Assembly: GCA_049283855.1 (NCBI GenBank)
Contig: JBAPWU010000062.1
Coordinates: 1-46,860, forward strand
Origin: Kineosporiaceae bacterium
Lineage (GTDB): Bacteria > Actinomycetota > Actinomycetes > Actinomycetales > Kineosporiaceae
Length of the DNA: 46,860 nucleotides
Reading direction: 5' to 3'
Shown: positions 3,812 to 19,246 of the stretch, one piece after another
Position numbering within the stretch: the stretch's first letter is position 1
Layout: each line of letters begins with the position of its first letter
Position numbers and translations under genes: made by a program
The notes under the pieces: model-generated
What the model was told of the DNA's origin: nothing
What the model saw: the letters and a program-made list of their open reading frames with translations, nothing else
Databases searched by the model: none

Positions 3812-4165
3812 TCAGGCCCACCCCAACTCGTGCAGCCGGTCGTCGTCGATGCCGAAGTGATGCGCGATCTCGTGCACCACGGTCACCTGGACCTCCTCCA
3901 CGACCTCCTCGCGGGACTCGCACAGCTCGAGCGTGGGCCGCCGGAAGATCGTGATCCTGTCGGGCAGAGAGCCGGCCGCCCAGCCGCCGTCCCGCTCGGT
4001 CAGTGGGGTGCCCTCGTAGAGCCCGAGCAGATCCTCCTCCCCGGGCGGCGGGTCGTCCTCGACCAGGATCACCACGTTGTCCATCACCCGGGTGAGCTCC
4101 GGCGGCAGGGTGTCGAGCGCATCGGCCACCGCCTCCTCGAACTCCTCCCGCCCCATCTCGACCAT
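3812..4165 (-). CDS. small zinc metallopeptidase family protein (minimal zincin, HExxH)
   Basis: HEIAHHFG motif near the C-terminus and an acidic N-terminal half (EEFEEAVADALDTLPPEL). Start taken at the internal Met (4165 or 4156). Confidence 0.75.
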   Translation of the reverse strand: MVEMGREEFEEAVADALDTLPPELTRVMDNVVILVEDDPPPGEEDLLGLYEGTPLTERDGGWAAGSLPDRITIFRRPTLELCESREEVVEEVQVTVVHEIAHHFGIDDDRLHELGWA

Positions 4166-4260
4166 GAGCACAGCGTCACACAGTGCCCGTCGGGTGGGCA
4201 CGGCGTCACACTGTCCCCACCGGTGGTGGGTGCATCTCCACACAGTCAGGGGCTTCGCCG

Positions 4261-4608
4261 ATGAACGTGGACGACGTGCGCAGGCTGGCGCTGGCCCTGC
4301 CGCGGACCACCGAGGAGCCGCATCACCGGATGTCCTCGTTCCGCGTCGACGGCAAGATCTTCGTCACCGTGCCGCCGGACGGCGACGCGGTGCACATCTT
4401 CGTCGGCGAGCACGAGGCCCGGGCTGCAGTCGCGGAGTCGCCCGAGCGGGTGGAGTTGCTGTGGTGGGGAAAGGCGCTGAGCGGCGTCCGCGTGACTCTG
4501 GCGGACGAGGATGCGTTGGGCGCGCTGGTGGCCGAGCTGGTGGAGGTGGCCTGGCGGCGCAAGGCTCCCCGGCGGCTGGTCGCCGAGCACGATGTGACGC
4601 CGCCCTGA
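4261..4608 (+). CDS. MmcQ/YjbR-like small protein
   Basis: MNVDDVRRLALALPRTTEEPHHRMSSFRVDGKIFVTV matches the family's N-terminal pattern (LP...E......F+V.GK.F). ATG at 4261 lies inside the listed ORF. Confidence 0.6.
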   Translation: MNVDDVRRLALALPRTTEEPHHRMSSFRVDGKIFVTVPPDGDAVHIFVGEHEARAAVAESPERVELLWWGKALSGVRVTLADEDALGALVAELVEVAWRRKAPRRLVAEHDVTPP

Positions 4609-4729
4609 CCCATGATCGAGAGGGCGTGCGGGCACCGGGCAGGGCTATCGCTTTGGAGAAGGTGGCCCGGTGCCCCTATGCTGGCGGACGTCCTCGACGG
4701 GTCCTGGACGGCCGGGGTGCGTCGCCGAC

Positions 4730-4802
4730 GCCCTCATCGTCTAGTGGCCTAGGACGCCGCCCTTTCAAGGCGGTAGCACGGGTTCGAATCCCGTTGGGGG
4801 TA
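4730..4802 (+). tRNA. tRNA-Glu (anticodon TTC)
   Basis: Cloverleaf folded by hand. Anticodon arm CCGCC-CTTTCAA-GGCGG, T-arm ACGGG-TTCGAAT-CCCGT, acceptor GCCCTCA/TGGGGGT (two G-U pairs). No encoded CCA. Confidence 0.88.
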
Positions 4803-4820
4803 CGGTCTTGGCACCACCAA

Positions 4821-4894
4821 GGCCCCGTAGCGCAGTTGGTTAGCGCGCCGCCCTGTCACGGCGGAGGTCGCGGGTTCGAGTCCCGTCGGGGTCG
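4821..4894 (+). tRNA. tRNA-Asp (anticodon GTC)
   Basis: Acceptor GGCCCCG/CGGGGTC, anticodon loop CTGTCAC, T-loop TTCGAGT. Confidence 0.9.
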
Positions 4895-4938
4895 CGTCGA
4901 GCGGACGACGTCACGCAGGTGACGTGCCCGGCTCGCCC

Positions 4939-5012
4939 GGCCAGGTAGCTCAGTTGGTACGAGCGTCCGACTGAAAATCGGAAGGTCGGCGGTTCGACCC
5001 CGCCCCTGGCCA
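4939..5012 (+). tRNA. tRNA-Phe (anticodon GAA)
   Basis: Acceptor GGCCAGG/CCTGGCC, D-arm GCTCAGTTGGTACGAGC, anticodon arm TCCGA-CTGAAAA-TCGGA, T-loop TTCGACC, discriminator A. Confidence 0.92.
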
Positions 5013-5075
5013 CCGCCTCAAACCGCCCCTGAACTGCACAGACGTACATCTGTCGACGGATCACTTCTGTGGATC

Positions 5076-5114
5076 TCGCTCACATTCTGCTAACGATTGC
5101 TCACCGTTGCTCAC
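5076..5114 (+). repeat. cluster of three direct 8-mers (TCGCTCAC, TTGCTCAC, TTGCTCAC) overlapping the integrase stop codon
   Basis: Read directly: 5076-5083, 5097-5104, 5107-5114. The same motif recurs three times at 7459-7488 and once at 13583-13590. Confidence 0.6.
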
Positions 5115-5784
5115 GGGCGGTCGACCTGAACGCCGGCGATCGCGGTGGCCTGTGGCGGATGATCAGGTCGGTGGCCTGGTTGACCTGCTCGGCCGTGGGG
5201 TCGCGCAGGATGTGGGCGTACACCCGTTTGGTCACGCTCCGCGCGGCGTGCCCGAGGATCATCTGGACGACCTCCAAGGGGACGCCACCGGCGAGCGGCA
5301 GCGAGCAGGCACAGTGGCGCAGGTCGTGCAGCCGGATCGGCGGAAGCCCGCATGCCCTGACCAATCGGGAGAACTCGGCACTGACGGCGTTGGGGCGCGG
5401 TGGATCGCCGTGCGGGGTGGCGAACACCAGGTCGTGGTCGCGGTAGGTCCGTCGACGATCGACCGCCTGCGTCTTCACCGACCGCCCCGCCTCCACCTGC
5501 ATGCTCAGCCAGGTCTGCAGCCACCAGCCGAGCGTCAGGTCCCGGTCGTCCACCCAGACACCCGTGGCCAGCAGCGACAGCTCACCGGCCAGCACCTGCC
5601 CGGCCGCCTCCCTACTGGCGAACCCCGAGCGCACCACCTGCCGACGACGCTGACGCAGACCCGCCCCACGGGGGCCGACGTCGAAGGTGTACCCCCATGA
5701 TCCGTGCGGACGTCCGCAGTCCTTGACCCGCCGCCCGTCACCGTCGCGGCACTGGCACCGCTTGTACACCGACCCTCGAACCAC
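5101..5784 (-). pseudogene. tyrosine recombinase/integrase, apparently internally deleted
   Basis: GTG start at 5784 gives V-VRGSVYKRCQC (typical actinobacterial integrase N-terminus). The C-terminus has HDLRH ... LGH ... Y (box II). Only about 227 aa remain, and the segment that should carry the core-binding domain and the first catalytic Arg is missing between WWLQTWL and DLVFATPHGD. The 470-aa ORF in the track is an artefactual upstream extension. Confidence 0.6.
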
Positions 5785-5857
5785 CGCACACTCCCCTTCG
5801 CTCAGCCTGGATCCACCGACGCGATTCGAGCAGCAGCCGCGGGGTCGCCACTTCTCA

Positions 5858-5917
5858 GAGTTACCTGCGCTATCCCTACCACTAGCCCCTTTATGGATAG
5901 ACTTACGCAGGTAACTC
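5858..5917. promoter_or_regulatory. 12-bp inverted repeat (GAGTTACCTGCG / CGCAGGTAACTC) in the int-abiEi divergent intergenic region; candidate AbiEi operator
   Basis: Arms at 5858-5869 and 5906-5917, 36 bp apart. The right arm ends 3 nt before the GGGAGG RBS of abiEi. Confidence 0.4.
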
Positions 5918-5934
5918 AGAGGGAGGTCTGTCTC

Positions 5935-6564
5935 ATGCCCCGGCCGGTGACCCTGGTGGACCTGGACGGTCTCGGGCTGCCCGCCGCGTTCAGTACGTCC
6001 GCGGCGCTGGACGCCGGTCTGACCCGGCCGCTCTTGGACAGGCTCGTCCGGGACGGAGACCTGGAGCGGTTCGGGCGCGGGCTGTTCCTGCGCAGCGTCT
6101 ATGCCGACGGCATGGACACCGACCTGGTCGAGATCGCGGTCCGAGCGCCGTCGGCGACGATCTGCCTGACCAGCGCGCTGGCACGGCACGGCCTGACCGA
6201 CGAGATCCCCGCCGCGGTCGACATCGCGCTGCCGCGAGAGCACTGGCAGCCGAGGGTCGCGGCGCGGGTGGCGTGGCACCGGTTCGCCGAGGACAGCTTC
6301 ACCATCGGCCGGCACGACCTGCAGCTGACCGACCCCTCGGGGACGGCGGCGGCAGGGCCGCTGACGATCGGCCTGTACAGCGCCGAACGCAGCATCATCG
6401 ACGCCTTCCGCACCCGCGGCACTACCGGCTTCGACCTGGCCACCGACGCTCTGCGCCGCTGGCTGCGCGACCCCACCCACCAGCCCGCCGACCTCCTGAC
6501 CCTGTGCGAGCACTGGCCCCGAACCCTGACCGCATTGCGTACCGCGTTGGAGATCCTGCTCTGA
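5935..6564 (+). CDS. abiEi: AbiEi-family antitoxin/transcriptional regulator (type IV TA)
   Basis: ATG at 5935 with GGGAGG 8 nt upstream. Its stop overlaps the ATG of the downstream nucleotidyltransferase gene (TGATG). N-terminal wHTH-like segment followed by ICLTSALARHGLTDEIP...DIALPRE. Confidence 0.8.
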   Translation: MPRPVTLVDLDGLGLPAAFSTSAALDAGLTRPLLDRLVRDGDLERFGRGLFLRSVYADGMDTDLVEIAVRAPSATICLTSALARHGLTDEIPAAVDIALPREHWQPRVAARVAWHRFAEDSFTIGRHDLQLTDPSGTAAAGPLTIGLYSAERSIIDAFRTRGTTGFDLATDALRRWLRDPTHQPADLLTLCEHWPRTLTALRTALEILL

Positions 6565-7455
6565 TGGCCAACCCGAACCGCGACACCACCGCCGGCGCCG
6601 CCTTCATCGACCTGCGCGCCCTCGCCAAGATGCAGGGACGCAACGTCGCCGAGCTGCTCGATCTGTACCTGCTCGAAGGATTCCTCGGCCGCCTCGCTGG
6701 CAGCGACCACGGCCCGCACCTCGTCCTCAAAGGCGGCGCACTGCTCGCCGCCTACGGCACCCGTCGTCCGACCCGCGACGTCGACCTGCTCGCCACCGAC
6801 CTGCACATCGACACCGACACCGTCCTGGCACTTGTCCGCAACATCGCCGGCCTGCCCCGAGACGACGGCCTGGAGTTCGACCCCGCATCCGCGACCGCGC
6901 ACGTCATCCGCGACGACGACGAGTACTCCGGCGTCCGGGTCAGTATGACTGCCACCCTCGGCCGCGCCCGCCTCACCTTCCACGTCGACGTCAACGTCGG
7001 CGACCCGGTCTGGCCCGCACCCGGCCTGGTCGCCGTCCCCGGACTCCTCGGCGGACACGATCGAGCTGCTCGGCTACCCGCTGGCCGCCGTCTACGCGGA
7101 GAAGATCGTCACTGCCCTGCAACGCGGGACCGCGAACACCCGCTGGCGTGACTTCGCCGACGTCTACCTCCTACGCGGCCAGCAGGACCTCGACGGCACC
7201 GACCTCACCACCGCACTGCAGAAGGTTGCCGCGTACCGCGGAGTCACCCTCCGACCGCTATCTCAGGCGCTGGCCGGGTACGCCCCGCTCGGCCAGACCC
7301 GCTACCGCGCCTGGGTCCAACGGCGAGACCTCACCGACCGCCTCCCGCGCGAGTTCGCCGAGCTGCTCCACGGCGTCCAGCAGCTCGCCGACCCACCGCT
7401 CGCCGGCAACGCCCACAGCCGCACCTGGGACCACACCACGCTCGCGTGGACCTGA
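6564..7455 (+). pseudogene. abiEii: AbiEii/AbiGii-family nucleotidyltransferase toxin (DUF1814), frameshifted near 7059
   Basis: The frame from 6564 reads ...LVLKGGALLAAYGTRRPTRDVDLL...HVDVNVGDPVWP...LLGGH, then becomes nonsense. The +1 frame from 7060 continues IELLGYPLAAVYAEKIVTALQRGTANTRWRDFADVYLL... to a TGA at 7453-7455. Confidence 0.75.
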
Positions 7456-7458
7456 GCC

Positions 7459-7488
7459 TTGCTCACGTGGTTGCTCACACTTGCTCAC
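7459..7488 (+). repeat. three direct copies of TTGCTCAC just after the abiEii stop
   Basis: 7459-7466, 7471-7478 and 7481-7488. Same orientation as the cluster at 5076-5114. Confidence 0.6.
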
Positions 7489-7670
7489 GGATCTCGGGTT
7501 CCGCCGCTACCGGATGCTGCGCGCCGGTCATGCCACGGCACACGGGGTGGCTGCTGCTACCGCCCGGACGCTCGCCGCATCGAGCGATGACGTGCTTCAG
7601 ACGCCGGAGCGGTCCGGAGGTGGACCTAGCGGGCGGGCGGCGCTCGCCGGTCGTACGGTCTGGCGCCCCG

Positions 7671-8525
7671 CTACTCCAGCGTTCCCAGATCCAGGAGGCC
7701 GGACCGCCAGGCTTGCTGCTCGGCGCGGACGAGTTCGAGGAGCCGACCGATCAGGTGGCGGCAGCTGTTGTATGCGTAGTAGTCACCGAATCCGGTGGCG
7801 TTGAAGACGATGCGCCCCTCGCCGGTCGCGAGGAGTTCCTGCGTGAGGCTTTCGTGTTGCTGGAACTTGACTCGAAGGAGCTGGATGATCGTCGCCTGAA
7901 GGGATGCGTCGCAGCCGTCGCGCGCTGCGGCCTCGCCGGCGAGGCGGGACAGTCCGTACGGGTTCGATTCGGCGAGAACCGCCTGGCGAACGCCAGGGTC
8001 CGTCGTCCGCAGCGCCCAGTACGCGTGCTCGACTGTCGGGTAGGTGACCCTGCCGATGCGGACCGGCGCCGGGTACTGCGTGTGCAGGGCGAGGATGCCG
8101 GGTGGATCAGGCCACCCGTTGTGGTGGAACGAACCCGGGACGACGACCGCTGCCGCGACGGGTGGGGTCCTTTCGGCCGACGCCTTCCGGCTCACAGCCC
8201 GGTCGGCGAAGTACTCGAGCGCCTGGCGACGTCGCTCGTCGGTGACGACCTTGCCCGCCAACTTCTTCCCGACGGGCGTGATGACGACCCGCAACGGCCA
8301 GTCCTTCGCGTCCTGGTCGCCGAGGACGTACATCCTGCGATGCACGGGAATGGTGTTGTACGCCTCCGCCAGGCGCTGCCGGTTGGCCTCGGACGGGTCG
8401 GCCAGGTAGGCCTCGAGCAGCTCCAGGCAGACGCCGCTGGAGTCAAGGCGGCCGTTGAGGATCTCGATCTCGTCGACGACCTCGCTGTACAGCCCATCGG
8501 CCTTCACCCACGACTCGACGTTCAT
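7671..8525 (-). CDS. NADAR (YbiA-like) domain protein with an N-terminal region of unknown function
   Basis: The C-terminal 150 aa fit the NADAR pattern: RVTYPTVEHAYWAL...RLAGE...LQATIIQLLRVKFQQHESLTQELLATG...IVF. The listed start is the Met created in the second copy of a 10-bp duplication. Confidence 0.7.
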   Translation of the reverse strand: MNVESWVKADGLYSEVVDEIEILNGRLDSSGVCLELLEAYLADPSEANRQRLAEAYNTIPVHRRMYVLGDQDAKDWPLRVVITPVGKKLAGKVVTDERRRQALEYFADRAVSRKASAERTPPVAAAVVVPGSFHHNGWPDPPGILALHTQYPAPVRIGRVTYPTVEHAYWALRTTDPGVRQAVLAESNPYGLSRLAGEAAARDGCDASLQATIIQLLRVKFQQHESLTQELLATGEGRIVFNATGFGDYYAYNSCRHLIGRLLELVRAEQQAWRSGLLDLGTLE

Positions 8526-8540
8526 GAACGTTCATGAACG
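8521..8540. repeat. perfect 10-bp tandem duplication TTCATGAACG x2
   Basis: Read directly. Removing one copy fuses the frame of ORF 8443-8676 to the NADAR ORF (…ASWTFMNVESWVKADG…). Confidence 0.9.
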
Positions 8541-8897
8541 TCCATGACGCGACCTCGTGCGCGAACGCGTGAGCGCCTTCCTTGAAGGTGGTCGCGACCC
8601 AGCCGCTGCGCAGCTTGACGCGGAACTCCTCGAGCGTCACAAGGCCCCAGCAGTCAACGAGCCCATCGGCGTACACGATCAGGTCAGTCAGGTAGTAGGA
8701 GCCGCCGTTGTTGATGAACGCATGTCTCCATGACCATCCGAACCGACGATGAAGTGGGTCTCGCCCGGTCGGACGTCGAGGACGTCGTAGTCGATCGAGG
8801 TCTTGTCTTCGACCCGTTCGGCAGTCGGACGAGCGCCCGCCCGTCGCGGGTCCTCGACGAACGTCACCGGGATCAGCGCGAGCTGGCCGGGCTCCAT
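8526..8897 (-). pseudogene. displaced 5' part of the NADAR-domain gene (two frame breaks)
   Basis: ATG at 8897 with GGAGGA upstream gives MEPGQLALIPVTFVEDP...FIVGSDGHGDM. A 1-nt frame change near 8718-8720 continues as AFINNGGSYYLTDLIVYADGLVDCWGLVTLEEFRVKLRSGWV...SWTFMNV, which the 10-bp duplication separates from the NADAR ORF. Confidence 0.4.
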
Positions 8898-9022
8898 GTA
8901 CTCCTCCGCAGATCGGTTACGTCGCGCAGTCTCTGAGCCAACCGCTCGCCGAGCAGAGGGCCACGGGGACAAGCCGTCCGATCACGTCGCGGTGCAGGAC
9001 GGCGTCCGGCGGCGCAGGTCGT

Positions 9023-10345
9023 TCAACCAGTGGCTGAGACGAGGTCGTTGGGGTGCCAGAGCCGGTCGATCGGCATGACGTGGATGCGGTCGTCGTGGGT
9101 ATAGGTGCGTTGTCCGGTGGTCAGGACGACGCCGGCGCTGAACCGCGGACCGAGGGCTTGGCGCAGCTGCCGCAGGCCCGCCGTGTCGGCACTGGTGGCG
9201 CGCTGGTTGGCCTTGACCTCGAAGGCGACGACCTGCCCGTCGTCGAACTCGGCGACGACGTCGACCTCGGTCCCGTCACTGGTCCGCCAGTGCCCGAGAG
9301 TGACCTGCTCGTCGAGCCAGGACGCCTGCTTGCGCAGCTCGCCAACGACGAAGGTCTCCAGCAGGTTGCCGAAGTCGCTGAGCGCTGCCGGTTCGGCGGT
9401 CGCGAGCTTGGCTGGGGTGATCCGTAGCAGCCGGGCGGCCAGACCAGAGTCGACCAGATGCACCTTGGGACGCACGCTGACCCGCGAGCGCAGCGTCTTA
9501 CCCCACCCGAGAAGGCGGACCACCAGGAACAGGTCTTCCAGGAGCCGCAGGTGCGCCTCGGCGGTCCGGCGGTCTACCCCGATCGACTCAGCAGCCTTGG
9601 TGATGTTGAGCAGTTGCCCGGTCTGTGATGCCAGCCGCGTCAGCAGGTCCGCCAAGGACTGCCGCTGGCGGACCTGGCTCAGCTCGAGGGCGTCACGCTC
9701 GACGGACTGGCGGACGAAGTCGTCGAACCATCGCGCCCGCGCGACGTCCGACCGCTTCACCGCCAGCGGCAGCCCACCGGCGCAGACCCGGGCGGCATAG
9801 CCCTCCCGCGCGGTGCCCGAGACCGGGTGCTGCGCGACGACGGCGCCCGGGTCAGCCCGCAGGCCCTCAAGAAGGTTCTCCCGGGTACCCGCGAGCTCCC
9901 CCTGCGACAGCGGCCAGATCGTGACCGTGTGGAGCCGCCCGGTCAGCGCCTGCGCGGTCGTCGGCAGCGCGTCCTGGCGTGTCGACCCGGTGATCACAGC
10001 GGTCCCGGCGCGACTGCCTTCGCGGTTTAGCCGGGTCTTGATCGCATCCAGAACGTCCGGCACCCGCTGGTACTCGTCGACGCACAGCGGCGCCGGGCCA
10101 CCGGTGACCAGAGCCAGGTTGCCGGCGACCGCCTCACGGGTCTCGACGTCGTCCAGATCGATCACCGGGACACCACGGTCACGGGCCAGGATCTGCAGCA
10201 CCGTGGACTTCCCCACCGACCGCGGCCCGTGCAGCGCAATCACCGGCTCCTCCGTCACCAACTGCGACAGCAGCACACTGACACGTCTCGCGATCAGTCC
10301 GGACTCATCAGCCACGAAGTCAAGGTACCAAATCTGAGCCGCCAA
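9023..10345 (-). CDS. AAA+ ATPase with C-terminal DUF4143/PD-(D/E)xK-like module (COG1373 type), paralog 1
   Basis: Walker A GPRSVGKST, Walker B LCVDEYQ, C-terminal EVDVV...FEVKAN. Confidence 0.85.
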   Translation of the reverse strand: MAAQIWYLDFVADESGLIARRVSVLLSQLVTEEPVIALHGPRSVGKSTVLQILARDRGVPVIDLDDVETREAVAGNLALVTGGPAPLCVDEYQRVPDVLDAIKTRLNREGSRAGTAVITGSTRQDALPTTAQALTGRLHTVTIWPLSQGELAGTRENLLEGLRADPGAVVAQHPVSGTAREGYAARVCAGGLPLAVKRSDVARARWFDDFVRQSVERDALELSQVRQRQSLADLLTRLASQTGQLLNITKAAESIGVDRRTAEAHLRLLEDLFLVVRLLGWGKTLRSRVSVRPKVHLVDSGLAARLLRITPAKLATAEPAALSDFGNLLETFVVGELRKQASWLDEQVTLGHWRTSDGTEVDVVAEFDDGQVVAFEVKANQRATSADTAGLRQLRQALGPRFSAGVVLTTGQRTYTHDDRIHVMPIDRLWHPNDLVSATG

Positions 10346-10626
10346 ACTGTACGTTCTTGAGGGCCCGAAGCGCTCAGATGTGAGCGCGAGACCCGCCAGT
10401 TGGCCGACTGCTGGCCAGCCGCCCGACTAGAGACCCGCTGTTGACGCACAGCGGCGTTGCTGAGCCAGCGGGTGCCCCCGAGCCCGCCTTGCCGGCCGAC
10501 CCGTCCGGCGGCCACCGACTCGCATCGACTCGTTGCGGTCAGTCTCGCCCAGGACACGCCCACAAGACCCGTTCAAGCTGGCCGACCAGCGCGTCACCGC
10601 AGGTCAGCGTCGTCCCGTCCCAGAAG

Positions 10627-10678
10627 GAGCGTCTGCTGAAAATCGGAAGGTCGGCGGTTGGACCCCGCCCCTAGCCAC
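10627..10678 (+). repeat. attR-like direct copy of the 3' half of tRNA-Phe
   Basis: GAGCGTCTGCTGAAAATCGGAAGGTCGGCGGTTGGACCCCGCCCCTAGCCAC versus tRNA 4961-5013. Differences: 3 substitutions and a 1-nt gap. Confidence 0.8.
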
Positions 10679-10973
10679 ACTTGATCAAGCCCTGACCTGC
10701 AGCTTTGCTGTTCTTGATCAATGCCTGGGGTATGCGATCGACCTTCTGAGGCTTATCAGGCGATCTGCACTTCTTGCGACATCGTTCGAGCGTCAACAGG
10801 GCGCTGACCTGCGGTTTCACCGACAGTGGCCGACGGCAGTTCCACGCGCATCTGGCCTGCGCTCTCCCGCCAGTGTCGAAATCGTGTCGAAGTCCGCCCC
10901 TCCGCGAGATACCCCCGGTGGGTACTCGGCAGAGGTCGGCGCGGTCTTCCGGAGATCATCGGTGGCTTGCATC

Positions 10974-11906
10974 TCACGTGGCGCGTGGACGTCGCGCGTG
11001 GCGCGTGCGCCGGTAGGCCTCGACGGACTTGCGGGAGCTGCGCCAGACGCCGTCCGGGCCCTGGACGGCGTCCAGGCGGCCTCGTTGGGCGGCTTGGCGC
11101 AGCGCCGCGACGCTGAAGTCGTCATCGGCCAACGCCGCGAGGGGGACCAGCCGGGCCGGGCCGGCCACATCGGGGACGATGAACCGATTCAGGTTGTCCA
11201 GCATGGCCCGCGCGATCAACTCCCCCAGCGGACCGTGGTCACCGGCATCGGACTTCGTCATTGCCGCCAGATACGCGGACCGCTGCTGCTTGAAGATGAT
11301 CACCGGTGGGTAGCCCAGCCGGACCAGGACGAGGTTGAGCACCAGTCGGCCGGTGCGGCCGTTGCCGTCCAGGAACGGGTGCACACACTCAAACCCGTTG
11401 TGCAGCCGCGCAAGCTCCTCCGGCAGCGGCGCACCCAGAGCCGCGTCGTCGCGGACCGTGCGGCCCAGCACCCGCACCTGGTCCCCCCATGACGTGATCT
11501 GTGCCGGCACGTCCGGCCAGGGCGGTGGCGTCATCCCGGCCTGGAACGGGCGGATGTCATGGCGGCGGAAGCTGCCCGGCCCCTCCTGATCGGTCGCCTC
11601 CGGGTGCGGCGCGACTCCCCAGACCGGGCTGATCGCCAGATGGTGGATCCGGCGCACCTCATTTACGGTGATCAACTCGCCGTCGTTCCAGGCATCCGGC
11701 TCCAGGGCCTGCCCGTAGACCCACCTGGCAGCGTCCGCGTAGCCCTTGACCACCATGTACTCACTCAACGGCTTGGCGCCCACCGCCCGGCCCCGCTCCA
11801 GCAGCGCCTCGACCTCGCGCAACACCAGGGTGTTGCCCTCCAACGCCGTGGAGTGGTGGGCCTCCCGGTGCCAGATGACCCGGGCATGCCCATTCGTACA
11901 CTTCAA
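10974..11906 (-). CDS. Fic family protein (canonical AMPylation motif, N-terminal inhibitory-helix motif)
   Basis: HPFLDGNGRTGR matches HxFx(D/E)GNGRxxR. HSTALEGN near the N-terminus matches the (S/T)xxxE(G/N) autoinhibition motif. C-terminal wHTH-like tail. Confidence 0.85.
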   Translation of the reverse strand: MKCTNGHARVIWHREAHHSTALEGNTLVLREVEALLERGRAVGAKPLSEYMVVKGYADAARWVYGQALEPDAWNDGELITVNEVRRIHHLAISPVWGVAPHPEATDQEGPGSFRRHDIRPFQAGMTPPPWPDVPAQITSWGDQVRVLGRTVRDDAALGAPLPEELARLHNGFECVHPFLDGNGRTGRLVLNLVLVRLGYPPVIIFKQQRSAYLAAMTKSDAGDHGPLGELIARAMLDNLNRFIVPDVAGPARLVPLAALADDDFSVAALRQAAQRGRLDAVQGPDGVWRSSRKSVEAYRRTRHARRPRAT

Positions 11907-11954
11907 AGGTGCCGAAATGTCAAATAGGGGCCCGACCGATGGTTAGATAGACAG

Positions 11955-13226
11955 GTGGAGTACCGACGCCGCGTCGTGGACGACGAACTGGACGCACTGT
12001 TGCCCAGCCTCGCCGCGATCTCACTCGAGGGCGCCAAAGGCGTGGGCAAGACAGCGACTGCGACGGGTCGCGTGCGAACGGTTCTGGCCCTCAACGATCC
12101 GCGACAACGCCAGGTCGTCGCCGCCGACCCCGGGCTCATCGGACGCGCCGAGCCGCCCGTCCTGCTCGATGAGTGGCAACTCGAACCGACTGTCTGGGAC
12201 CAGGTGCGCACGCTGGTGGACGCCGACCCCAGCGGCGGCCGCTTCCTGCTCACCGGCTCGGCCGGCCCGACCCGAGAGGCACGGATCCACTCCGGCGCCG
12301 GCAGGATCGTCCGCTTGGTGATGCGGCCCCTTGCCCTGTCCGAGCGCGGCCTCGTCCCACCGACGGTGTCCTTGGCCGGGCTGCTGACCGGGGCCCGGCC
12401 AACGGTCACCGGAGATTCTCCGATCGACCTGGCCACCTACACCGATGAGATCCTGCGGTCGGGCTTTCCCGGGATCCGCCCGCTGCCACCACGGCCACGC
12501 CGCATCCAGCTCGACAGTTACCTCGCCCGCGCCCTCGATCACGATATGGAGGAGAACGGGATCCGTGTGCGCAAGCCGGCCGCGTTGCGGGCATGGCTCA
12601 CCGCCTACGCCGCGGCGACCGCAACCACTGCCGCCTACAACGTCATCCTGGACGCGGCAACGCCCGGCGACGGCGACAAACCGACTCGCCAAACCGTCGC
12701 CGTCTACCGGGAGAGCCTCGAACGGCTCTTCCTGCTCGACCCCCTGCCCGCATGGGTGCCCAGCCTGTCCCCGCTGAAGCGCCTGACCGCCTCCCCCAAA
12801 CACCACCTGGTCGACCCTGCACTGGCCGCCCGCCTGATCGGCGTCGATGCGTCCGCGCTGCTCCGCGGGGCCGGTGACCGGCTGGCACCCAACGACGGAC
12901 CTCTCCTCGGCGCACTGTTCGAATCCCTTGCCGTCCAGACCGTCCGAGTGCTCGCCCAAGCCGCCGAAGCCCGAGTCCACCACCTGCGCACCAAGAGCGG
13001 CGATCACGAGATCGACATCGTCATCGAGGGGCCAGACCGGCGTATCGTGGCCGCCGAAGTCAAACTCAACCCCGTCGTCACCGATGACGACACCACCCAG
13101 TTGCGCTGGCTGCACAACACCATCGGCGAACGAGCAGCCGACCTCATCGTCCTCACCACAGGCCCGCACGCCTACCGGCGCCCGGACGGCATCGCCGTCA
13201 TCCCACTGACACTCCTCGGCCCCTGA
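11955..13226 (+). CDS. AAA+ ATPase with DUF4143/PD-(D/E)xK-like module, paralog 2
   Basis: GTG start. Walker A GAKGVGKTA, Walker B VLLDEWQ, C-terminal EIDIV...AEVKLN. Divergent from the Fic gene with only 48 bp between the starts. Confidence 0.8.
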   Translation: MEYRRRVVDDELDALLPSLAAISLEGAKGVGKTATATGRVRTVLALNDPRQRQVVAADPGLIGRAEPPVLLDEWQLEPTVWDQVRTLVDADPSGGRFLLTGSAGPTREARIHSGAGRIVRLVMRPLALSERGLVPPTVSLAGLLTGARPTVTGDSPIDLATYTDEILRSGFPGIRPLPPRPRRIQLDSYLARALDHDMEENGIRVRKPAALRAWLTAYAAATATTAAYNVILDAATPGDGDKPTRQTVAVYRESLERLFLLDPLPAWVPSLSPLKRLTASPKHHLVDPALAARLIGVDASALLRGAGDRLAPNDGPLLGALFESLAVQTVRVLAQAAEARVHHLRTKSGDHEIDIVIEGPDRRIVAAEVKLNPVVTDDDTTQLRWLHNTIGERAADLIVLTTGPHAYRRPDGIAVIPLTLLGP

Positions 13227-13527
13227 ACAGACGGGGCTGCCCGGGGGACCTGGACGCCGACACCCTCACCCGCTACCGCCGCGTCCTCGGCGACGACGCC
13301 CCCACACTCGGCAGTCGGGCAGCAACCTCCCGGCGCCTGCGCAGCCTCGGCCGCGACGACGACGCACGGCGCGATCGAGGTCGATCGATATCACCATCGA
13401 CCTCTACGGCCCATGGGTCTGATTGCGACCGTTCGTCGCGACCACAGCCCTACACCGCCACATGGGTCCGGGCAGAGCCGGCGTCCAGCCGTCACCAGAC
13501 GTACCCGACCGGCTGTGGCTGTCCGCG

Positions 13528-13563
13528 CCACATCCACGCCACATCCACGCCACATCCACGCCA
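13528..13563. repeat. 11-bp tandem repeat CCACATCCACG x3.3
   Basis: Read directly. Non-coding, 70 bp upstream of the eroded tRNA-Phe fragment. Confidence 0.9.
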
Positions 13564-13630
13564 GAATCGAAGATCTACTTCTTTGCTCACCGCATCGCCG
13601 CAGGTCACAGCCTCGCAGACGCCAATCGCA

Positions 13631-13656
13631 CGTCCTGCCTGAGAATCGGAAGGTCG
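13631..13656 (+). repeat. eroded copy of the tRNA-Phe anticodon-arm/variable region (old att remnant)
   Basis: CGTCCTGCCTGAGAATCGGAAGGTCG versus tRNA CGTCCGACTGAAAATCGGAAGGTCG. Exact 13-mer AATCGGAAGGTCG plus matching flanks, in the same orientation. Confidence 0.5.
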
Positions 13657-13761
13657 AGGCGCTCCTGCGTTGGCCCTGATCGTGCACGCCACCCCGGCAG
13701 GCACGTCTGCGCAGGAGACGCTCGACTTCCTTACCCGCCGGGCCGTCGGCCGCTGTCAGCG

Positions 13762-15009
13762 TCATCCGGCCCATAGCGCGTCCATCGGGACAGCGGTGAT
13801 CCGATCACCGAATGGAGCGGCCGTCGCCCCGGTGTGCAGGACCACTCCAGCGACGAAACGAACGCCGAGGCTGTCTCGCAATTGGGTCAGCCATCGGACA
13901 TCACGGCCGGAGACGCTCGAGGTTGCCTTCACCTCGATCCCGGCAACCCTGCCGTCTCCGGTCTCCAGCACGAGGTCAACCTCGGCGCCGCCGTGGTCTC
14001 GATAGTGATACAGACGCGCATCCTCGTCAGCCCAGGACAGCTGCCGCCGAAGTTCTCCGGCGACGAACCCCTCAAGGATCTGTCCAGCTATCAACGGGTT
14101 AGCCGCACCTGCAGCACCGGCAGGAGTCACGTTCACCAGCCGCGCGGCAAGCCCGGCGTCCAGGAGAGCAACCTTCGGACGGGACACCACACGCTTGGAC
14201 AGGTTCGTTGACCATGCCGGGATCCGGTGGACAAGGAACAGCGTCTCAAGCAGATCCACGTAGGGCGCCAGCGTGCGGACCGGGATCCCCGCATCACTTG
14301 CCAGCGAGGCCAGGTTCAGCTCGGCAGCGTTCCGGGCCGCGAGCAGCCGGAGCAGGCCGGGCAGCTCCGACAGGCGTTGCAGGCCGGACACATCCGGCGC
14401 ATCGCGCTCCACGACGCGCCGAAGGCAATTGTCCAGCCAGGCCGATCGGCGCCGTCCGGTGCGAGACAACGCCTCCGGGTAACCACCCGCACATGCCACG
14501 TCGATATAGTCCGGCCGGGTCATATCGCTGCGGTGGGCGGTGAAGTCCTCGCCCGCCAGGAGCCGGTCCACGAACCGCTCCCGCCTGCCCGACAGCTCTC
14601 CCTGGCTGAACCCGAACAGGTCCAGGCTCTCGGCTCGGCCCGCCAGGCTGTCCTGCATTGCGGGTAGCCGCAGCAGGTTCGCCGACCCGGTGAGCAGGAA
14701 GCGTCCTGGACGCTGGTCCCGGTCCACGACAAGCTTCAACGCGAGCACCAGCTCCGGAACCCGCTGCACCTCGTCGATCGCCAGCAGATCGTCCCCGGCC
14801 TGACCCAGAAACGCCACGGGGTCCAACTGGGCACCGGCACGAGTGGTCTCGTCGTCGAAGGTCACCAGCCGCCCGCCGACCTGATCCACCACATGCGACA
14901 CCAACGTCGTCTTGCCAACCTGACGGGCGCCCTGGACGACCACCACGCGCGTATCTGCCAGCGAGTCCAACACCGATGACGCCACATGCCGCGCAACAAC
15001 CTTCTTCAC
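13762..15009 (-). CDS. AAA+ ATPase with DUF4143/PD-(D/E)xK-like module, paralog 3
   Basis: Walker A GARQVGKTT, Walker B LAIDEVQ, C-terminal EVDLV...IEVKAT. Confidence 0.85.
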   Translation of the reverse strand: MKKVVARHVASSVLDSLADTRVVVVQGARQVGKTTLVSHVVDQVGGRLVTFDDETTRAGAQLDPVAFLGQAGDDLLAIDEVQRVPELVLALKLVVDRDQRPGRFLLTGSANLLRLPAMQDSLAGRAESLDLFGFSQGELSGRRERFVDRLLAGEDFTAHRSDMTRPDYIDVACAGGYPEALSRTGRRRSAWLDNCLRRVVERDAPDVSGLQRLSELPGLLRLLAARNAAELNLASLASDAGIPVRTLAPYVDLLETLFLVHRIPAWSTNLSKRVVSRPKVALLDAGLAARLVNVTPAGAAGAANPLIAGQILEGFVAGELRRQLSWADEDARLYHYRDHGGAEVDLVLETGDGRVAGIEVKATSSVSGRDVRWLTQLRDSLGVRFVAGVVLHTGATAAPFGDRITAVPMDALWAG

Positions 15010-15043
15010 GCCGCAAGACTACGGCCCACCCAGGGATGTTCTC

Positions 15044-15096
15044 GCCGTTTTTCCAACATCTACTCGCCGATTTTCCACCATCTACTCGCCGATCCA
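15044..15096. repeat. 22-bp tandem repeat (GCCGWTTTTCCAMCATCTACTC) x2.4 at the junction with the truncated abiEi copy
   Basis: Copies at 15044-15065 and 15066-15087, with a partial third copy. Confidence 0.85.
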
Positions 15097-15107
15097 GAGC
15101 CCTGGAA

Positions 15108-15630
15108 GGGGCGGCTGGGCCGCGGCGTTCTCCCGCGAGGCGGCTCCGCGGAGGTGGTGGACACCGACCTCGTCGAGATCGCCGTCCGTGCGCCGGCGGC
15201 GACGATCTGCCTGACCAGTGCCCTGGCCCGGCACGGGCTCACCGACGAGATCCCCGCTGCGGTGGACATCGCACTGCCCCGCGAGCATTGGCGTCCCACC
15301 GTCGCGGCCCGCGTGGCCTGGCACCGGTTCGCCGAAGACACCTTCACGATCGGGCGGCAGGAGCTGACCGTGGCCGGTTCGGGGACGACCGGCACCGTGG
15401 CCACCGGCACAGCGACGACGGGCGCCGTGACGATCGGCCTGTACAGCGCCGAACGCAGCATCATCGACGCCTTCCGCACCCGCGGCACCACCGGCTACGA
15501 CCTCGCCATCGAAGCCCTACGCCGGTGGCTGCGCGACCCCTCCCACCAGCCCGCGAGGCTGCTCTCGCTCTGCGAGCACTGGCCAAGGACACGAACCACC
15601 CTGCGCAACGCCCTGGAGATCCTGATCTGA
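15108..15630 (+). pseudogene. 5'-truncated second copy of abiEi
   Basis: The translation from VVDTDLVEIAVRAPAATICLTSALARHGLTDEIPAAVDIALPREHW... is highly similar to 5935-6564, but the N-terminal wHTH part is missing. Nucleotide similarity runs from about 15159. Confidence 0.7.
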
Positions 15631-15687
15631 TGGGCCAACCCGAACCGGGACACCACCGCCGGAGCCGCGTTCATCGACCTGCGTGCC
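15630..15687 (+). pseudogene. about 60-bp 5' stump of a second abiEii copy
   Basis: Same TGATG stop/start overlap. ATGGGCCAACCCGAACCGGGACACCACCGCCGG... matches 6564-6620 with an extra G that breaks the frame. Similarity stops near 15687. Confidence 0.6.
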
Positions 15688-15817
15688 CAGTCCCAGGGCT
15701 GGAACGCCGCCCTCGGCGAACTCGCCCTGATCTACCCCGACCGGATCACCAGCTACCTGCAACAGCAAGATCAAATAGAGTCAGAGCGACTCTTGAACAA
15801 GGAGGTTGACAGACTCC

Positions 15818-18800
15818 TCACAGGGGCTGGAGGCCCAGGGTGCCGACCAGGTCGGCCTGGTAGGCGGGCTTGGACACCCGCGCCAACTCGGCGTGGATCT
15901 GCTGCAGGTTGCGCTGCACGTGCAGCCGTTCGGCCGTGTCGACGTTGGTCTCGCCGGACTGAAACCGCTCCAGCCGCGCAGCCGCCCGCTTGTAGTGCTC
16001 CACGTCGTACTGCTGCTTGGCCGCCAACCGCTGCGCGTACCACGAGCTGGCCAGCACGCTGTCGCGGGTGAATTGCGCGCGCAGTTCGGGCGAGCGGACG
16101 GTCCAGCCCTCCTCGGAGGCTCCGGTGGCCATGAACTGCAGCAGCGACCGCAGCGGTGGCACGGCGAGCGCGATGGTGTCGTCGTCGATGAACGACTGGG
16201 CGACCCGGCGATGCGTCTCGACGATGACCTCGATGCTGTCGGCGTAGACGTCGGCGTCCTGCAGTTCGGGGGCCAGCATCTCGTCGGTGAACACCGTGTC
16301 CGGGTGCAGGAAGATGCGCGCGAAGAAGGTCGTGGCGAACCGGCGATTCATCCGGTGTCCGAGTCGTCCGGCCTCGACGGTGCGCCCGTTGCGCTCGACG
16401 TCGGGCACGGCGTCGAGGTAGCCGTTCTCCCTGAGCCACGATGCGTCCCGCTCGCGCGGTGACATACGGCTGAACAGTTCCGGCACGAGCAGGCTCACGT
16501 CGTGGTCGACCCGGACCCTGGGCCCGATGAAGCCCGCGCTGGAGATCCAGCCGTCGTACCCGGTCAACGCATAGCTGAGGAAGGAGGCGTTCAGGTCGAT
16601 GATCGAGGGCAGCATGTTGAAGGGGCCCTTGGTCAGCGCACCCTCGGAGCCGGCGCCGGTGGTGGACGGCGACTTGCCGGTCATCGAGCTGATGAACTCC
16701 ATGAAGAGCTCGGGCAGCTCCATGTAGTGCAAGGGGTTGTACGAGCACAGGGCCGGCGCGTCCGCCTCGGGCGCGTTGTTGCGCCGTCCGGCGGCCACCA
16801 CATCGACCGCCAGCGGAGCGAACTCGGCCAGCGGCCTGTGGTGCAGAAGGTGACTGGCGATGTCCGCGAGCTGGGTGGCCACGGGGTTGGCCCGGTCAGG
16901 GCGCACCTGCAGGTAGCGGGGGTTCTTGCTGGGGCGCCCGCCCACCAGGCGCGGCTCGGAGGAGCTCGCGACGTACTCCGGTGATCCCTCACCCGCGGCG
17001 AAGCGGGCCAGCAGGTCCTTCATCGGATCGGTGAACCGGCTGAACGAGACGGCGTCCTGCACCAGCGCCGTAGCCTCGGGCCGGGTGATCGGGGCGAAGT
17101 TCGACAGGAACGTGCCAGGAGTGGCGATGTCGCGCTCGGCCTGCTTGTCGTAGCCGCGGTGGATCGCGTCGTCCGGACGCTGGAACAGCAGTTGCTCGCA
17201 GTTGGCGACGTACTTCCGGGACAGGGTCTCCTGGCCGGCTGCCTCGCTCCGGGCCTGCTGCAGACCGCGGCGGTGGCTGAAGTCCGGCGGCGGCTCGTCC
17301 GCCGGCAGCACGACGCTCGCCGTGATGTCGTCCTCGGTCTGGACCTTCACGGCGGGGCTGAAGTCGGGGCGCAGCGTGAACAGCCGCCAGGAGCCGTCCT
17401 GCTGGAAGCCCATCCGGAGCATGTTGACGATGATCAGCTCACCGTCGAGCCGGACCCGGCTGCCTGGTCGTCCGTTGATGTTGCTGACCGAGAAGTGCCG
17501 GCGCCAGTCCTGACCCCACTCGGGCCGGTAGTACTTCTTCACCAGGAAGAGCAGTTCCTTGACGTGAGGCGGGATGGCGCGCAGCCGCTCGTTGTGCGCG
17601 TCGGCGAAGTCCGGGCTCGGGGTGAGCAGCTTGACCACGCTGCCGAGACTGCGCTCGGGGGAGAGGATCGGGCGGTGGTCACGGTTCCACGACGGGTCGC
17701 GGTAGCGGTCGGCGAAGTCGGTGGCGATCAGTTCGGCGACCGCCTCGATGTCGCTGTCGAAGTCCTGGATCGCGGTGTGGCCGAAGACGAACGCATCCAG
17801 GAGTGACTTGCTGATCTCGCTCTTGCCTCCGCCGGAGACCGTGGCCGGCTTGTGGCACTGGGTCGAGATCGGTGAGATCCCCAGCAGGTGCCACTGCGTC
17901 CGGTCGGCCTCGCGCGGCTTGGCGAGCACCCGGTAGCCGTTGGGTGTCATGTAGACGTGGCCGGCCCGCAGCGGGATGGTGAACTTCTCGCCGCTGCGTC
18001 CGGTCCAGGTCACACTGCGGCGTGGCAGGCTGAACGAACTGCCGGCCGGAACGAGGATGAGCTCGGCCAGCCGGGTGTCGAGCGCATGGCCCTCGGTCTG
18101 GAGCGCGAACCGGTCGGGGTTGGTCGTGACCACTTCGTTGATCGAGTACTCCGCCGGAGTGAAGGTGTCGGTGTACTCCTGGCCCAGGTTGTAGGAGGGG
18201 TAGCAGATGGCGCCGCCGGAGTGCTCCTCCTCGGCGAGACCGAACAGATTCGCGGCGTAGCTGATCTGTGTCTTCACCTCCTTCTTGCAGTAGCCGAAGT
18301 AGTTGTCCGCGATGACCGTGACGACGACGCCGCGGGCGTCGCGCGCACAGACCTTGAACGCCTGGCCGCGGTTGTAGCGCTCGTCGGGCGTCGCCCAGCA
18401 CATGCCGTCCCGCTTCTGGCGGTCGGTGGCCTGATCGAGGTGTGGCAGGCCCAGCTCCTGCTTGGTCAGCGTGGTCAGGTGCGGCGCCAGGATGACGCAG
18501 CCGGTGTGCCCGGTCCAGGTGACCGGGGTCAGCGAGGCATCGTTCTCCGGCAGGTAGGGGTCGCCCCCATTGCCGAAGATCCCCTCGACGAAGTCCAGGT
18601 TGGCCACCAGGCCGCCGGGCACGATGAAACGCGTCTCCATCGAGCGGGCCACGGGCACCTTCGCGGTGGCGGGCACGACCAGGGGGCGCAGCAGGAGCGA
18701 GACCCAGGTGCGGGCCGGCTCGGGGGAGGTCGCCGTCCAGGGCAGCACCAGATCGTCGGCCGCCGGCTGCAGCGCCGACGCGAGCAGGCGGGCGAAGACG

Positions 18801-19246
18801 TCCTTCGGCACCGCGACCTTGTCGTCCTGGATCGGCAGTCCGCCCTCGGCGATGTGGAACACCCCGGCGGTCGTGCGCCGGTCGTTGGCCGGGTTGTGCA
18901 GGACGCCATTGGCGAGCCGGTAGCTGGAGATCAGGCGCGAGGTGAACGCGTCGGAGTCGCGGGGCAGCGAGAGTTCCCGGGCGAGTCCCGGCTCGTCGAG
19001 CACCAGGGTGCGCCGTGGCAGTTGCGGCTGCACGGGGCTGTCCGCGAGGAAGGAGTCGAGGAACGCCTGGATGCGCCGGTCCGCCGCACACGGGCGGTCG
19101 GCAAGGCGTCGGCTCAGCTCGCGGTTGCGGGCCAGGACGGGGGAGACCAGACGGAACGGCTCCTCGGCGGCGGCGCCCGGGGGAAGTGGCAGCCCCGACA
19201 TGGCCAACCGCAGCATGATCGCGCTGGACCCGTGGACGTCAGACAT
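15818..19246 (-). CDS. 1142-aa protein, tentatively PPi-dependent phosphoenolpyruvate carboxykinase (EC 4.1.1.38)-like
   Basis: Uninterrupted high-GC3 ORF of about 126 kDa, the size class of PPi-PEPCK known from Propionibacterium, Actinomyces and Entamoeba. P-loop-like SGGGKSE and a conserved-looking block ADNYFGYCKKEVKTQISYAANLFG. The CDS is certain; the product call comes from memory of the family. Confidence 0.5.
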   Translation of the reverse strand: MSDVHGSSAIMLRLAMSGLPLPPGAAAEEPFRLVSPVLARNRELSRRLADRPCAADRRIQAFLDSFLADSPVQPQLPRRTLVLDEPGLARELSLPRDSDAFTSRLISSYRLANGVLHNPANDRRTTAGVFHIAEGGLPIQDDKVAVPKDVFARLLASALQPAADDLVLPWTATSPEPARTWVSLLLRPLVVPATAKVPVARSMETRFIVPGGLVANLDFVEGIFGNGGDPYLPENDASLTPVTWTGHTGCVILAPHLTTLTKQELGLPHLDQATDRQKRDGMCWATPDERYNRGQAFKVCARDARGVVVTVIADNYFGYCKKEVKTQISYAANLFGLAEEEHSGGAICYPSYNLGQEYTDTFTPAEYSINEVVTTNPDRFALQTEGHALDTRLAELILVPAGSSFSLPRRSVTWTGRSGEKFTIPLRAGHVYMTPNGYRVLAKPREADRTQWHLLGISPISTQCHKPATVSGGGKSEISKSLLDAFVFGHTAIQDFDSDIEAVAELIATDFADRYRDPSWNRDHRPILSPERSLGSVVKLLTPSPDFADAHNERLRAIPPHVKELLFLVKKYYRPEWGQDWRRHFSVSNINGRPGSRVRLDGELIIVNMLRMGFQQDGSWRLFTLRPDFSPAVKVQTEDDITASVVLPADEPPPDFSHRRGLQQARSEAAGQETLSRKYVANCEQLLFQRPDDAIHRGYDKQAERDIATPGTFLSNFAPITRPEATALVQDAVSFSRFTDPMKDLLARFAAGEGSPEYVASSSEPRLVGGRPSKNPRYLQVRPDRANPVATQLADIASHLLHHRPLAEFAPLAVDVVAAGRRNNAPEADAPALCSYNPLHYMELPELFMEFISSMTGKSPSTTGAGSEGALTKGPFNMLPSIIDLNASFLSYALTGYDGWISSAGFIGPRVRVDHDVSLLVPELFSRMSPRERDASWLRENGYLDAVPDVERNGRTVEAGRLGHRMNRRFATTFFARIFLHPDTVFTDEMLAPELQDADVYADSIEVIVETHRRVAQSFIDDDTIALAVPPLRSLLQFMATGASEEGWTVRSPELRAQFTRDSVLASSWYAQRLAAKQQYDVEHYKRAAARLERFQSGETNVDTAERLHVQRNLQQIHAELARVSKPAYQADLVGTLGLQPL

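Follow-up and report, generated by a model that had tools for sequence, protein, structure and literature searches.

How does a single tRNA gene come to be followed by a stretch of accessory DNA subdivided by pieces of that same gene? This question is raised by the tRNA-Phe locus of a Kineosporiaceae bacterium (assembly GCA_049283855.1, contig JBAPWU010000062.1), from which we analyzed a stretch of 46,860 nucleotides, hereafter the window. An earlier note, based on the letters of this DNA, had described immediately after tRNA-Phe an island of ~10.8 kb and explained it by successive site-specific integrations into the tRNA gene. We consider it likely that the island indeed results from the repeated integration of elements carrying one family of integrase, followed by decay through deletion. 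The best matches of this uncultured, high-GC actinobacterium are metagenome-assembled genomes (MAGs) labelled Propionibacteriales or Kineosporiaceae; related loci are designated here by L numbers.

The tRNA-Phe Gene and Its Partial Copies

The tRNA-Phe gene of the window (Table 1) is identical to that of the relatives L083-L086 at positions 1-75/76, and foreign DNA begins at 5015, right after it. As had been claimed, its 3′ half recurs at 10627-10678 (copy 2), where 52 of 53 positions are aligned with tRNA-Phe (4961-5013), with three substitutions and a one-nucleotide gap. The local score of this alignment is 84; in 200 dinucleotide shuffles of both strands of the 41.8 kb downstream of the tRNA, the best score has a mean of 27.2, a standard deviation of 2.4 and a maximum of 40. 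The ungapped core of the copy reaches E = 4e-15 with blastn-short. Copy 2 is a direct repeat of the 3′ part of the tRNA, as expected of an attR, the distal attachment (att) site of a tRNA-linked island.

A shorter match (copy 3, 13631-13656) agrees with tRNA-Phe at 23 of 26 positions, including an exact 13-mer, AATCGGAAGGTCG, and its local score of 35 was reached in one of 500 shuffles limited to the island and to the + strand. With up to one mismatch allowed, the 13-mer occurs three times in the window, where 0.04 occurrences are expected; of the 102 other loci fetched, 92 lack it, and the rest have it only in tRNA-Phe genes and in att-type partial copies. The match reported by the earlier note is thus real, but its gradual erosion is not what is seen. 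Copy 3 comprises the anticodon arm and the variable loop and breaks abruptly after the latter, without the T-arm and the acceptor part, which points to a putative half att site made by deletion or rearrangement. Beyond 13656, alignment found no distal repeat in the window, in agreement with what had been said of the outermost segment. A formal evaluation of the repeats therefore places copy 2 far beyond chance, while copy 3, of moderate significance alone, is helped by an element-side motif that it shares with copy 2.

Architecture of the Attachment Sites

Upstream of their tRNA-like parts, and at the same offset, copies 2 and 3 share an element-side stretch with 17 matches in 20. JGI metagenomes were searched for CCGCAGGTCA followed, after a gap of 15-40 nt, by CTGARAATCGGAAGGTCG, which returned five contigs (L093-L097), each with a partial tRNA-Phe and without the full tRNA; the att pattern had no match in the viral contigs searched. 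When these five sites were aligned with copies 2 and 3 and with the attR of the related locus L082, an arm motif, CGCAGGTCA, was invariant in 8/8 sites, ~30 nt upstream of the anticodon-loop core. As expected of a tandem array, the two sites inside the island (10598-10701 and 13599-13656) hence have both arm motif and core in common with six external sites. In the window this 9-mer occurs five times against 0.77 expected, two of the occurrences being at the same offset from copies 2 and 3.

Moreover, the reverse complement of the arm motif, CTGACCTGCR, lies ~14 nt past the tRNA end in copy 2, in L082 and in L093-L095 (with one mismatch in L093), and two more copies of the form CTGRCCTGCG stand downstream of copy 2 (10804-10813 and 10852-10861). 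We infer that the arm motif and the inverted motif would be integrase-binding sites framing attP. The layout of the latter would be the CGCAGGTCA arm, a spacer of ~30 nt, a tRNA-Phe copy running from position 23-32 to the 3′ end, and CTGACCTGCR ~14 nt further on. AbiE genes adjoin this type of att site in five places, namely twice in the window and once each in L082, L086 and L093, and in L093 it is an AbiEii gene that lies on the element side of the partial tRNA-Phe.

Other short repeats accompany these sites. Four tandem copies of an 11-nt unit, TCCACGCCACA, occupy 13522-13563, ~75 nt upstream of the copy-3 core, and GCCCAC-type words resembling it also precede copy 2 and the sites of L094 and L095; all of them may be arm-type sites. 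In addition, a tandem word, GTGTCGAA-N3-GTGTCGAAGT, is present past copy 2 (10873-10893) and past the attR of L082 (3714-3734 of that locus) with 19 of 21 positions in common, which hints that the DNA beyond these two sites may once have been homologous.

An Integration Hot Spot in Related Genomes

The left flank of the island, in the order GGDEF/EAL, Pyridox_ox_2, Zincin_1 and the Glu-Asp-Phe tRNAs, is kept in five related loci belonging to three lineages (L082, L083/L084 and L085/L086). Far from repeating the same 10.8 kb, these loci hold four different fillings directly after tRNA-Phe. L083 and L084 share a helix-turn-helix (HTH) gene, a 694-aa gene and, at the far end, a 349-aa integrase; in L085 a 428-aa integrase is accompanied by HTH_17 and GntR genes; and L086 has an AbiEi/AbiEii pair with no called integrase. 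In L082, the closest relative, a complete 4.2-kb int-AbiEi-AbiEii-orf84 element (3830-8011) runs from tRNA-Phe to its attR, where positions 36-76 of the tRNA are repeated perfectly over 41 nt; transposase and NACHT genes come next. It is plausible that this element is among the smallest autonomous integrative units.

The strains L085 and L086 are 99.7% identical leftwards from the tRNA-Phe 3′ end and unrelated to its right. Since they diverge exactly at the tRNA end, tRNA-Phe is an integration hot spot, variable even between strains.

Some peculiarities of these loci are also worth recording. The L085 and L086 contigs encode an identical GGDEF/EAL protein, the C-terminus of the L085 integrase reads out of frame, and the N-terminus of the L082 integrase looks frameshifted in a run of G, possibly an assembly error.

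A Recent but Damaged Proximal Module

The part of the island nearest to the tRNA is the one for which a close counterpart exists. Compared with the L082 element, window positions 4926-5468 are 97% identical and positions 5469-7454 are 99.0-99.7% identical, against 83.6% for the left flank (4.3 kb), as fits the proposal that the youngest element is the one next to the tRNA. This near-identity ends exactly at the AbiEii stop codon (7455). Past it, L082 has 960 bp and then attR, whereas the window has 3.2 kb of unrelated DNA, with a NADAR gene and an ATPase gene, and then copy 2. As the near-identity stops at that point, the first segment is composite, the left of an L082-type element being joined to the right of something else, most likely as the outcome of a deletion across a former element boundary.

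Even this youngest unit has decayed. In the 470-aa open reading frame (ORF) at 5101-6513 of the minus strand, only 5101-5784 is integrase sequence, and the remainder is mostly a spurious reading antisense to abiEi, so that its annotation as a 470-aa integrase should be corrected. The true frame starts at the GTG at 5784 with VVRGSVYKRCQCRDG, where identity to the L085 integrase N-terminus is 46%. By tblastn, the L082 integrase (421 aa) is represented only by its residues 4-58 (5628-5464) and 303-420 (5469-5116), in the same frame, and nucleotide alignment finds no counterpart in the window for L082 6819-7556, that is, for 738 bp or 246 codons. An N-terminal part of 105 aa is thus joined in frame to a C-terminal part of 121 aa at 5468/5469, where the protein reads ...RSVKT followed by QAVDRRR..., with a few bases of microhomology at most. 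In Pfam, Phage_integrase is matched only between positions 71 and 168 of its 172-position profile; the protein retains the HDLRH box and the region of the C-terminal Tyr but has lost that of the box I Arg. The enzyme is an ordinary tyrosine recombinase. The integrase that had been placed next to the intact tRNA is therefore there as sequence, but as an internally deleted remnant, and no intact integrase adjoins an att site in the window.

The AbiE genes that follow recall the type IV toxin-antitoxin (TA) or abortive infection systems, in which intact genes for AbiEi, with a winged HTH, and for the DUF1814 nucleotidyltransferase AbiEii stand side by side. Both families are detected in the first pair, in which an extra A at 7060, outside any homopolymer, shifts the AbiEii frame after ~165 of 296 codons. 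Furthermore, a direct repeat of ~580 bp with 80-93% identity, absent from the earlier note, links 6063-6621 to 15108-15688 and corresponds to a second AbiEi with the start of a second AbiEii. The latter is cut after ~35 codons; its start, within the repeat part that we call D3, is 93% identical to the first over 56 nt.

The intergenic region between int and abiEi contains a 16-nt inverted repeat (5854-5869 / 5906-5921; CTCAGAGTTACCTGCG / CGCAGGTAACTCAGAG, 15/16), which is probably an operator. Its core, CGCAGGTAA, resembles the att arm motif CGCAGGTCA; we give no weight to the likeness because AbiEi of L086 is not preceded by such a repeat. Where the second AbiEi region begins (15036-15093), two to three direct repeats of ~22 nt (ATCTACTCGCCGATTTTCCACC) are found, unlike the inverted repeat that precedes the first AbiEi.

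The island has thus decayed through deletion and not by a gradual erosion. The long core genes of the window (PEPCK, GGDEF/EAL and GH92; PEPCK stands for phosphoenolpyruvate carboxykinase) are collinear with their homologues, so that the damage is concentrated in the island, although single-base changes may still be assembly errors.

The Distal End

That a large metabolic gene resumes at 15818 was correctly noted, and it is identified here as the gene for a pyrophosphate (PPi)-dependent PEPCK. The second AbiEii is cut ~80 bp before the PEPCK stop codon, and the right edge of the island is a truncation, not an att site. The junction is not peculiar to one assembly: a Logan contig (L001, SRR27943120) is 100% identical to window 15459-20654, and the transition from island to PEPCK has therefore been assembled independently, possibly from the same community.

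PEPCK is not the ancestral neighbour of tRNA-Phe, and the right edge should be taken with caution, as a rearrangement junction and not a native flank. In the closest relative, on a contig of 1.95 Mb, PEPCK (~1.88 Mb) and tRNA-Phe (~0.43 Mb) are 1.45 Mb apart, and of the 80 PEPCK loci from GTDB genomes that were scanned, the 34 searched for tRNAs have no tRNA-Phe within 10 kb of PEPCK. Homology to the closest relative in this part covers only 15818-19609, that is, PEPCK and 360 bp upstream (L002, L082). Moreover, neither at the DNA nor at the protein level is there a shared neighbour on either side of PEPCK in any close relative examined; the gene sits in a very fluid context, with different neighbours in each of them. 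The empty site that had been suggested as a check, a tRNA cluster directly adjoining the PEPCK homologue, was accordingly found in none of these 34 relatives.

GH92 (22709-25291) was tried as an anchor for the right flank and rejected, as the 1.95-Mb contig of the closest relative gave no match among the 120 matches listed; the synteny of a Kineosporiaceae MAG with the GH92 region covers only ~22.7-28.4 kb. Within that span, two long ORFs (528 aa and 347 aa; 25379-28395) have no Pfam match and coincide with the strongest AT skew and the lowest GC of the window. They are syntenic with GH92 in the Kineosporiaceae MAG (L087, L088), with a CAP12/PCTIR TIR-domain gene nearby. Further right, two adjacent genes for DUF347-repeat membrane proteins (31039-33197) lie beside a divergent HisKA/response-regulator pair (28811-30897).

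Cargo of the Island

The description of the island as accessory cargo, including TA modules, Fic, NADAR and ATPase-nucleases, is borne out by Pfam and PADLOC, which give two AbiE modules, each of them damaged, a Fic protein, a NADAR-domain gene and three ATPases (Table 1). This content would make the array a small defence/TA island.

Table 1. Features of the tRNA-Phe island and of its borders, in window coordinates
Feature	Position	Strand	Basis and remarks
tRNA-Glu	4730-4803	+	ARAGORN; first gene of the Glu-Asp-Phe tRNA cluster
tRNA-Asp	4821-4895	+	ARAGORN
tRNA-Phe (GAA), intact	4939-5014	+	ARAGORN; last gene of the cluster; integration target and attL core
CTGAACTGCA	5029-5038	+	one-mismatch copy of CTGACCTGCR, ~14 nt past the live tRNA end
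Tyrosine-integrase remnant, 227 codons	5101-5784	-	tblastn, nucleotide alignment, Pfam
AbiEi antitoxin/regulator, 209 aa	5935-6564	+	99.5% aa identity to L082 AbiEi; PADLOC AbiEi, E = 2.6e-43
AbiEii nucleotidyltransferase toxin, frameshifted	6564-7455	+	Pfam, PADLOC AbiEii; split in two frames by tblastn
Fragmented DUF7638 / DUF7639-NADAR gene	7671-8676	-	ORFs 8443-8676 and 7671-8525 overlap in different frames
ATPase 1, AAA_14 + DUF4143 (PDC-S01)	9023-10345	-	Pfam, PADLOC
Internal att site	10598-10701	+	arm motif CGCAGGTCAG (10598-10607), copy 2 (10627-10678), CTGACCTGCA (10692-10701)
Fic-domain protein	10974-11906	-	Pfam Fic, E = 3.3e-15; PADLOC PDC-S04 and SoFic-like
ATPase 2, AAA_14 + DUF4143 (PDC-S01)	11955-13226	+	29-31% identical to the other two ATPases
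Half att site	13599-13656	+	arm motif CGCAGGTCA (13599-13607), copy 3 (13631-13656)
ATPase 3, AAA_14 + DUF4143 (PDC-S01)	13762-15009	-	E = 8.8e-163
Second AbiEi	15052-15630	+	69% aa and ~80% nt identical to the first AbiEi
Second AbiEii, first ~35 codons only	15631-15735	+	tblastn: L082 AbiEii residues 2-35 only
PPi-dependent PEPCK	15818-19246	-	PDB 6k31, 8e1u, E = 0; right neighbour, outside the island

The three ATPase genes match PADLOC PDC-S01 (E = 2.5e-135, 5.5e-71 and 8.8e-163), in agreement with their AAA_14 + DUF4143 architecture in Pfam, and would be candidate defence genes. PDC-S01 is a very common single-gene candidate found via "guilt by embedding", in which an ATPase is fused to a domain of the PD-(D/E)XK superfamily, and most such candidates await experimental validation (PMC12988326). 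The three proteins are mutually only 29-39% identical, and are therefore considered independent acquisitions and not local duplications. Homologues of ATPase 1 with 70-93% aa identity exist in many actinobacterial families (Dermatophilaceae, Phycicoccus, Microlunatus, Propionimicrobium, Nocardioidaceae and Occultella), in unrelated contexts and with no tRNA-Phe fragment nearby. These contexts rule out an intrinsic link between DUF4143 ATPases and tRNA-Phe fragments, and the ATPases are cargo, outside the integration machinery. Furthermore, identities so far above what taxonomic distance would lead one to expect indicate frequent horizontal transfer of this single gene. The exact sequences of ATPases 1 and 3 are not on record in public assemblies.

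The NADAR gene is probably a pseudogene, because its two ORFs overlap in different frames. Its Pfam match to DUF7638 covers profile positions 34-83 of 106, DUF7639 is also matched, and the NADAR match (32.3 bits) lies under the 35.1-bit cut-off; GC content at third codon positions (GC3) is 0.64 in the DUF7638 fragment. For the Fic protein NCBIfam gave only weak Fic-related matches, all below threshold, and for the other nine proteins none. Five further ORFs (6099-7058 and 11903-12436 and 12021-13169 of the minus strand, 7446-8537 and 10533-11492 of the plus strand) were set aside as spurious, being antisense or overlapping readings: none matches a family, all overlap confirmed genes, and some show the wrong GC-position pattern.

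Proposed Accretion and Its Alternatives

How could these pieces have come together? The 3′ half of tRNA-Phe would be the attachment site of small tyrosine-integrase elements with a core of int-AbiEi-AbiEii. Recombination in or near the anticodon arm would rebuild the tRNA proximally and leave a partial tRNA copy distally; as the tRNA is rebuilt, later elements could integrate there again, so that earlier ones are displaced outward and the elements line up in tandem, with att sites left inside the array at 10598-10701 and 13599-13656. The crossover position and the order and number of the integrations are inferred. Deletions would then have cost the array its older integrases, the 3′ portion of the tRNA in the outer att site, the newest element's right end (break at 7455) and 246 codons of that element's integrase, and would have cut the distal end inside the second AbiEii (break near 15735); a rearrangement would have put the PPi-PEPCK beside the truncated end. 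With no intact integrase left in the window, the array can probably no longer move, unless one is supplied in trans.

The successive integrations put forward by the earlier note thus gain from the variable fillings of the hot spot, the shared arm motif and the proximal near-identity, and lose from the lack of an older integrase, the truncated right edge and the lack of an empty site. Several observations weigh against accretion and must be considered. In 7456-15817, tblastn with three integrases gave only noise at E values up to 20, which leaves the att remnants and the AbiE copy as the sole links of segments 2-4 to integration, and the outer segment has an ATPase where the layout of the family would place an integrase. 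The score of copy 3 was reached in three of 200 shuffles of the whole window and both strands, a moderate significance on its own. No empty tRNA-Phe site was found among the related loci examined, nor was any excised or circular form seen, and several of the MAG references may carry homopolymer errors. Finally, composition lends the island no support, since neither GC, nor GC3 (0.77-0.92 inside, 0.79-0.94 outside), nor tetranucleotide distances, which stay within the range of the window, set it apart.

Compositional uniformity is, in turn, what would be expected if the whole array had been acquired in one step, as a pre-assembled composite that had accreted in another genome and moved as a unit. 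Such joint transfer is documented for tandems of a cis-mobilizable element (CIME) and an integrative and conjugative element (ICE) (PMC5704250), and the island is indistinguishable from its host. Nevertheless, we regard this explanation as unlikely: the proximal 2.4 kb is 97-99.7% identical to an element of a relative that lacks everything distal of AbiEii and has its attR 960 bp further on, and the two AbiE copies are ~20% different at the nucleotide level, which argues that the parts differ in age.

The weakness of copy 3 invites the opposite simplification, in which a single integration (5015-10678) took place, copy 3 is a chance or secondary-site match, and 10679-15735 is a variable region or an older unrelated island. 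Copy 3 is short (26 nt), its whole-window p value is ~0.015, it has lost the T-arm and acceptor part, which a genuine attR would have to preserve, and no integrase remnant exists beyond 7455. However, it has the arm motif of the family at the correct offset and matches the arm of copy 2 at 17 of 20 positions, the 13-mer that it contains is restricted to tRNA-Phe genes and att sites among the 102 other loci, and immediately distal of it comes another AbiEi/AbiEii from this element family. A single integration is accordingly quite improbable. Local duplication or unequal recombination between the AbiE copies or the ATPase paralogues is more improbable by far, for although the 580-bp direct repeat brackets most of the island, repeats of 80-93% and ATPases of 29-39% identity are too diverged for a recent duplication beside a proximal module shared at 99% with another species, the abundance in other taxa of homologues 70-93% identical to ATPase 1 argues against it, and duplication would not account for partial tRNA copies that carry element arms.

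Repeated integration followed by deletion therefore remains our preferred explanation, as no rival accounts equally well for the conserved arm motif, the unequal ages of the parts and the divergence of the paralogues taken together, and it admits an extension that we regard as rather doubtful. The 4-kb int-AbiEi-AbiEii unit could be a currently active, minimal, addiction-stabilised element of uncultured soil and water Actinomycetota, which would seed tRNA-Phe again and again and be a landing pad for single-gene defence candidates (PDC-S01, Fic and NADAR). If this were true, the inverted pair CGCAGGTCAG...CTGACCTGCR and the similar int/abiEi repeat would be recognition sites in common, coupling the control of integration to the regulation of AbiE.

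Relation to Known Systems

As a target, tRNA-Phe is also used by pSE211 of Saccharopolyspora erythraea, which integrates in it. With the actinomycete integrative and conjugative elements (AICEs) the island shares an actinobacterial host, a tRNA target and a tyrosine integrase. By Pfam, however, the island ORFs scanned include no Rep (RepSA/RepAM/Prim-Pol), FtsK-like Tra or Nudix/Pra-type genes, and no phage structural, packaging or replication genes; for want of replication, transfer or phage genes, it is neither an AICE nor a prophage.

The likeness to islands in tRNA genes, such as those in the Asn tDNA of Klebsiella (PMC4891358), resides in the intact tRNA, the 3′ direct repeat, the adjacent tyrosine integrase and the strain-variable content. 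In contrast to them, the units are here very small (4.2 kb in a relative), there is no compositional signature, and a search of plasmid and phage collections yielded no integrase more than 31% identical to the present one. As in defence islands, AbiE, Fic (SoFic/PDC-S04-like) and three PDC-S01 candidates are clustered on mobile DNA; unlike in them, several genes are damaged, the cluster is small and the defence role of PDC-S01 is that of a candidate.

A close parallel is offered by tandem accretion with integrase-less, att-flanked remnants (CIMEs), as in ICESt1/ICESt3 of Streptococcus thermophilus, reviewed for integrative and mobilizable elements (PMC5704250). In both cases the elements integrate site-specifically into the 3′ end of a conserved gene, the internal att sites are in direct orientation, the newer element is next to the target gene and some segments lack an integrase, as does here the segment 10679-13656, which holds only Fic and ATPase 2, without integrase trace, and whose right att is a half site. 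The island differs from these tandems in having no detected genes for conjugation or mobilisation, a deletion in even the newest integrase, a half site as its outer att, and a distal end that is truncated instead of being bounded by attR.

Tandem accretion, integrase-less remnants and defence cargo on tRNA-linked islands were already known, and the general picture is unchanged. What this locus adds is a 4.2-kb int-AbiE unit common to two species at 97-99.7% identity, a corrected annotation and, for one integrase family, a testable att layout made of arm motif, partial tRNA and inverted motif. It is also a clean and well-delimited case in which small mobile units with TA and candidate defence genes would have been collected, and then eroded, at a tRNA gene of an uncultured lineage of actinobacteria.

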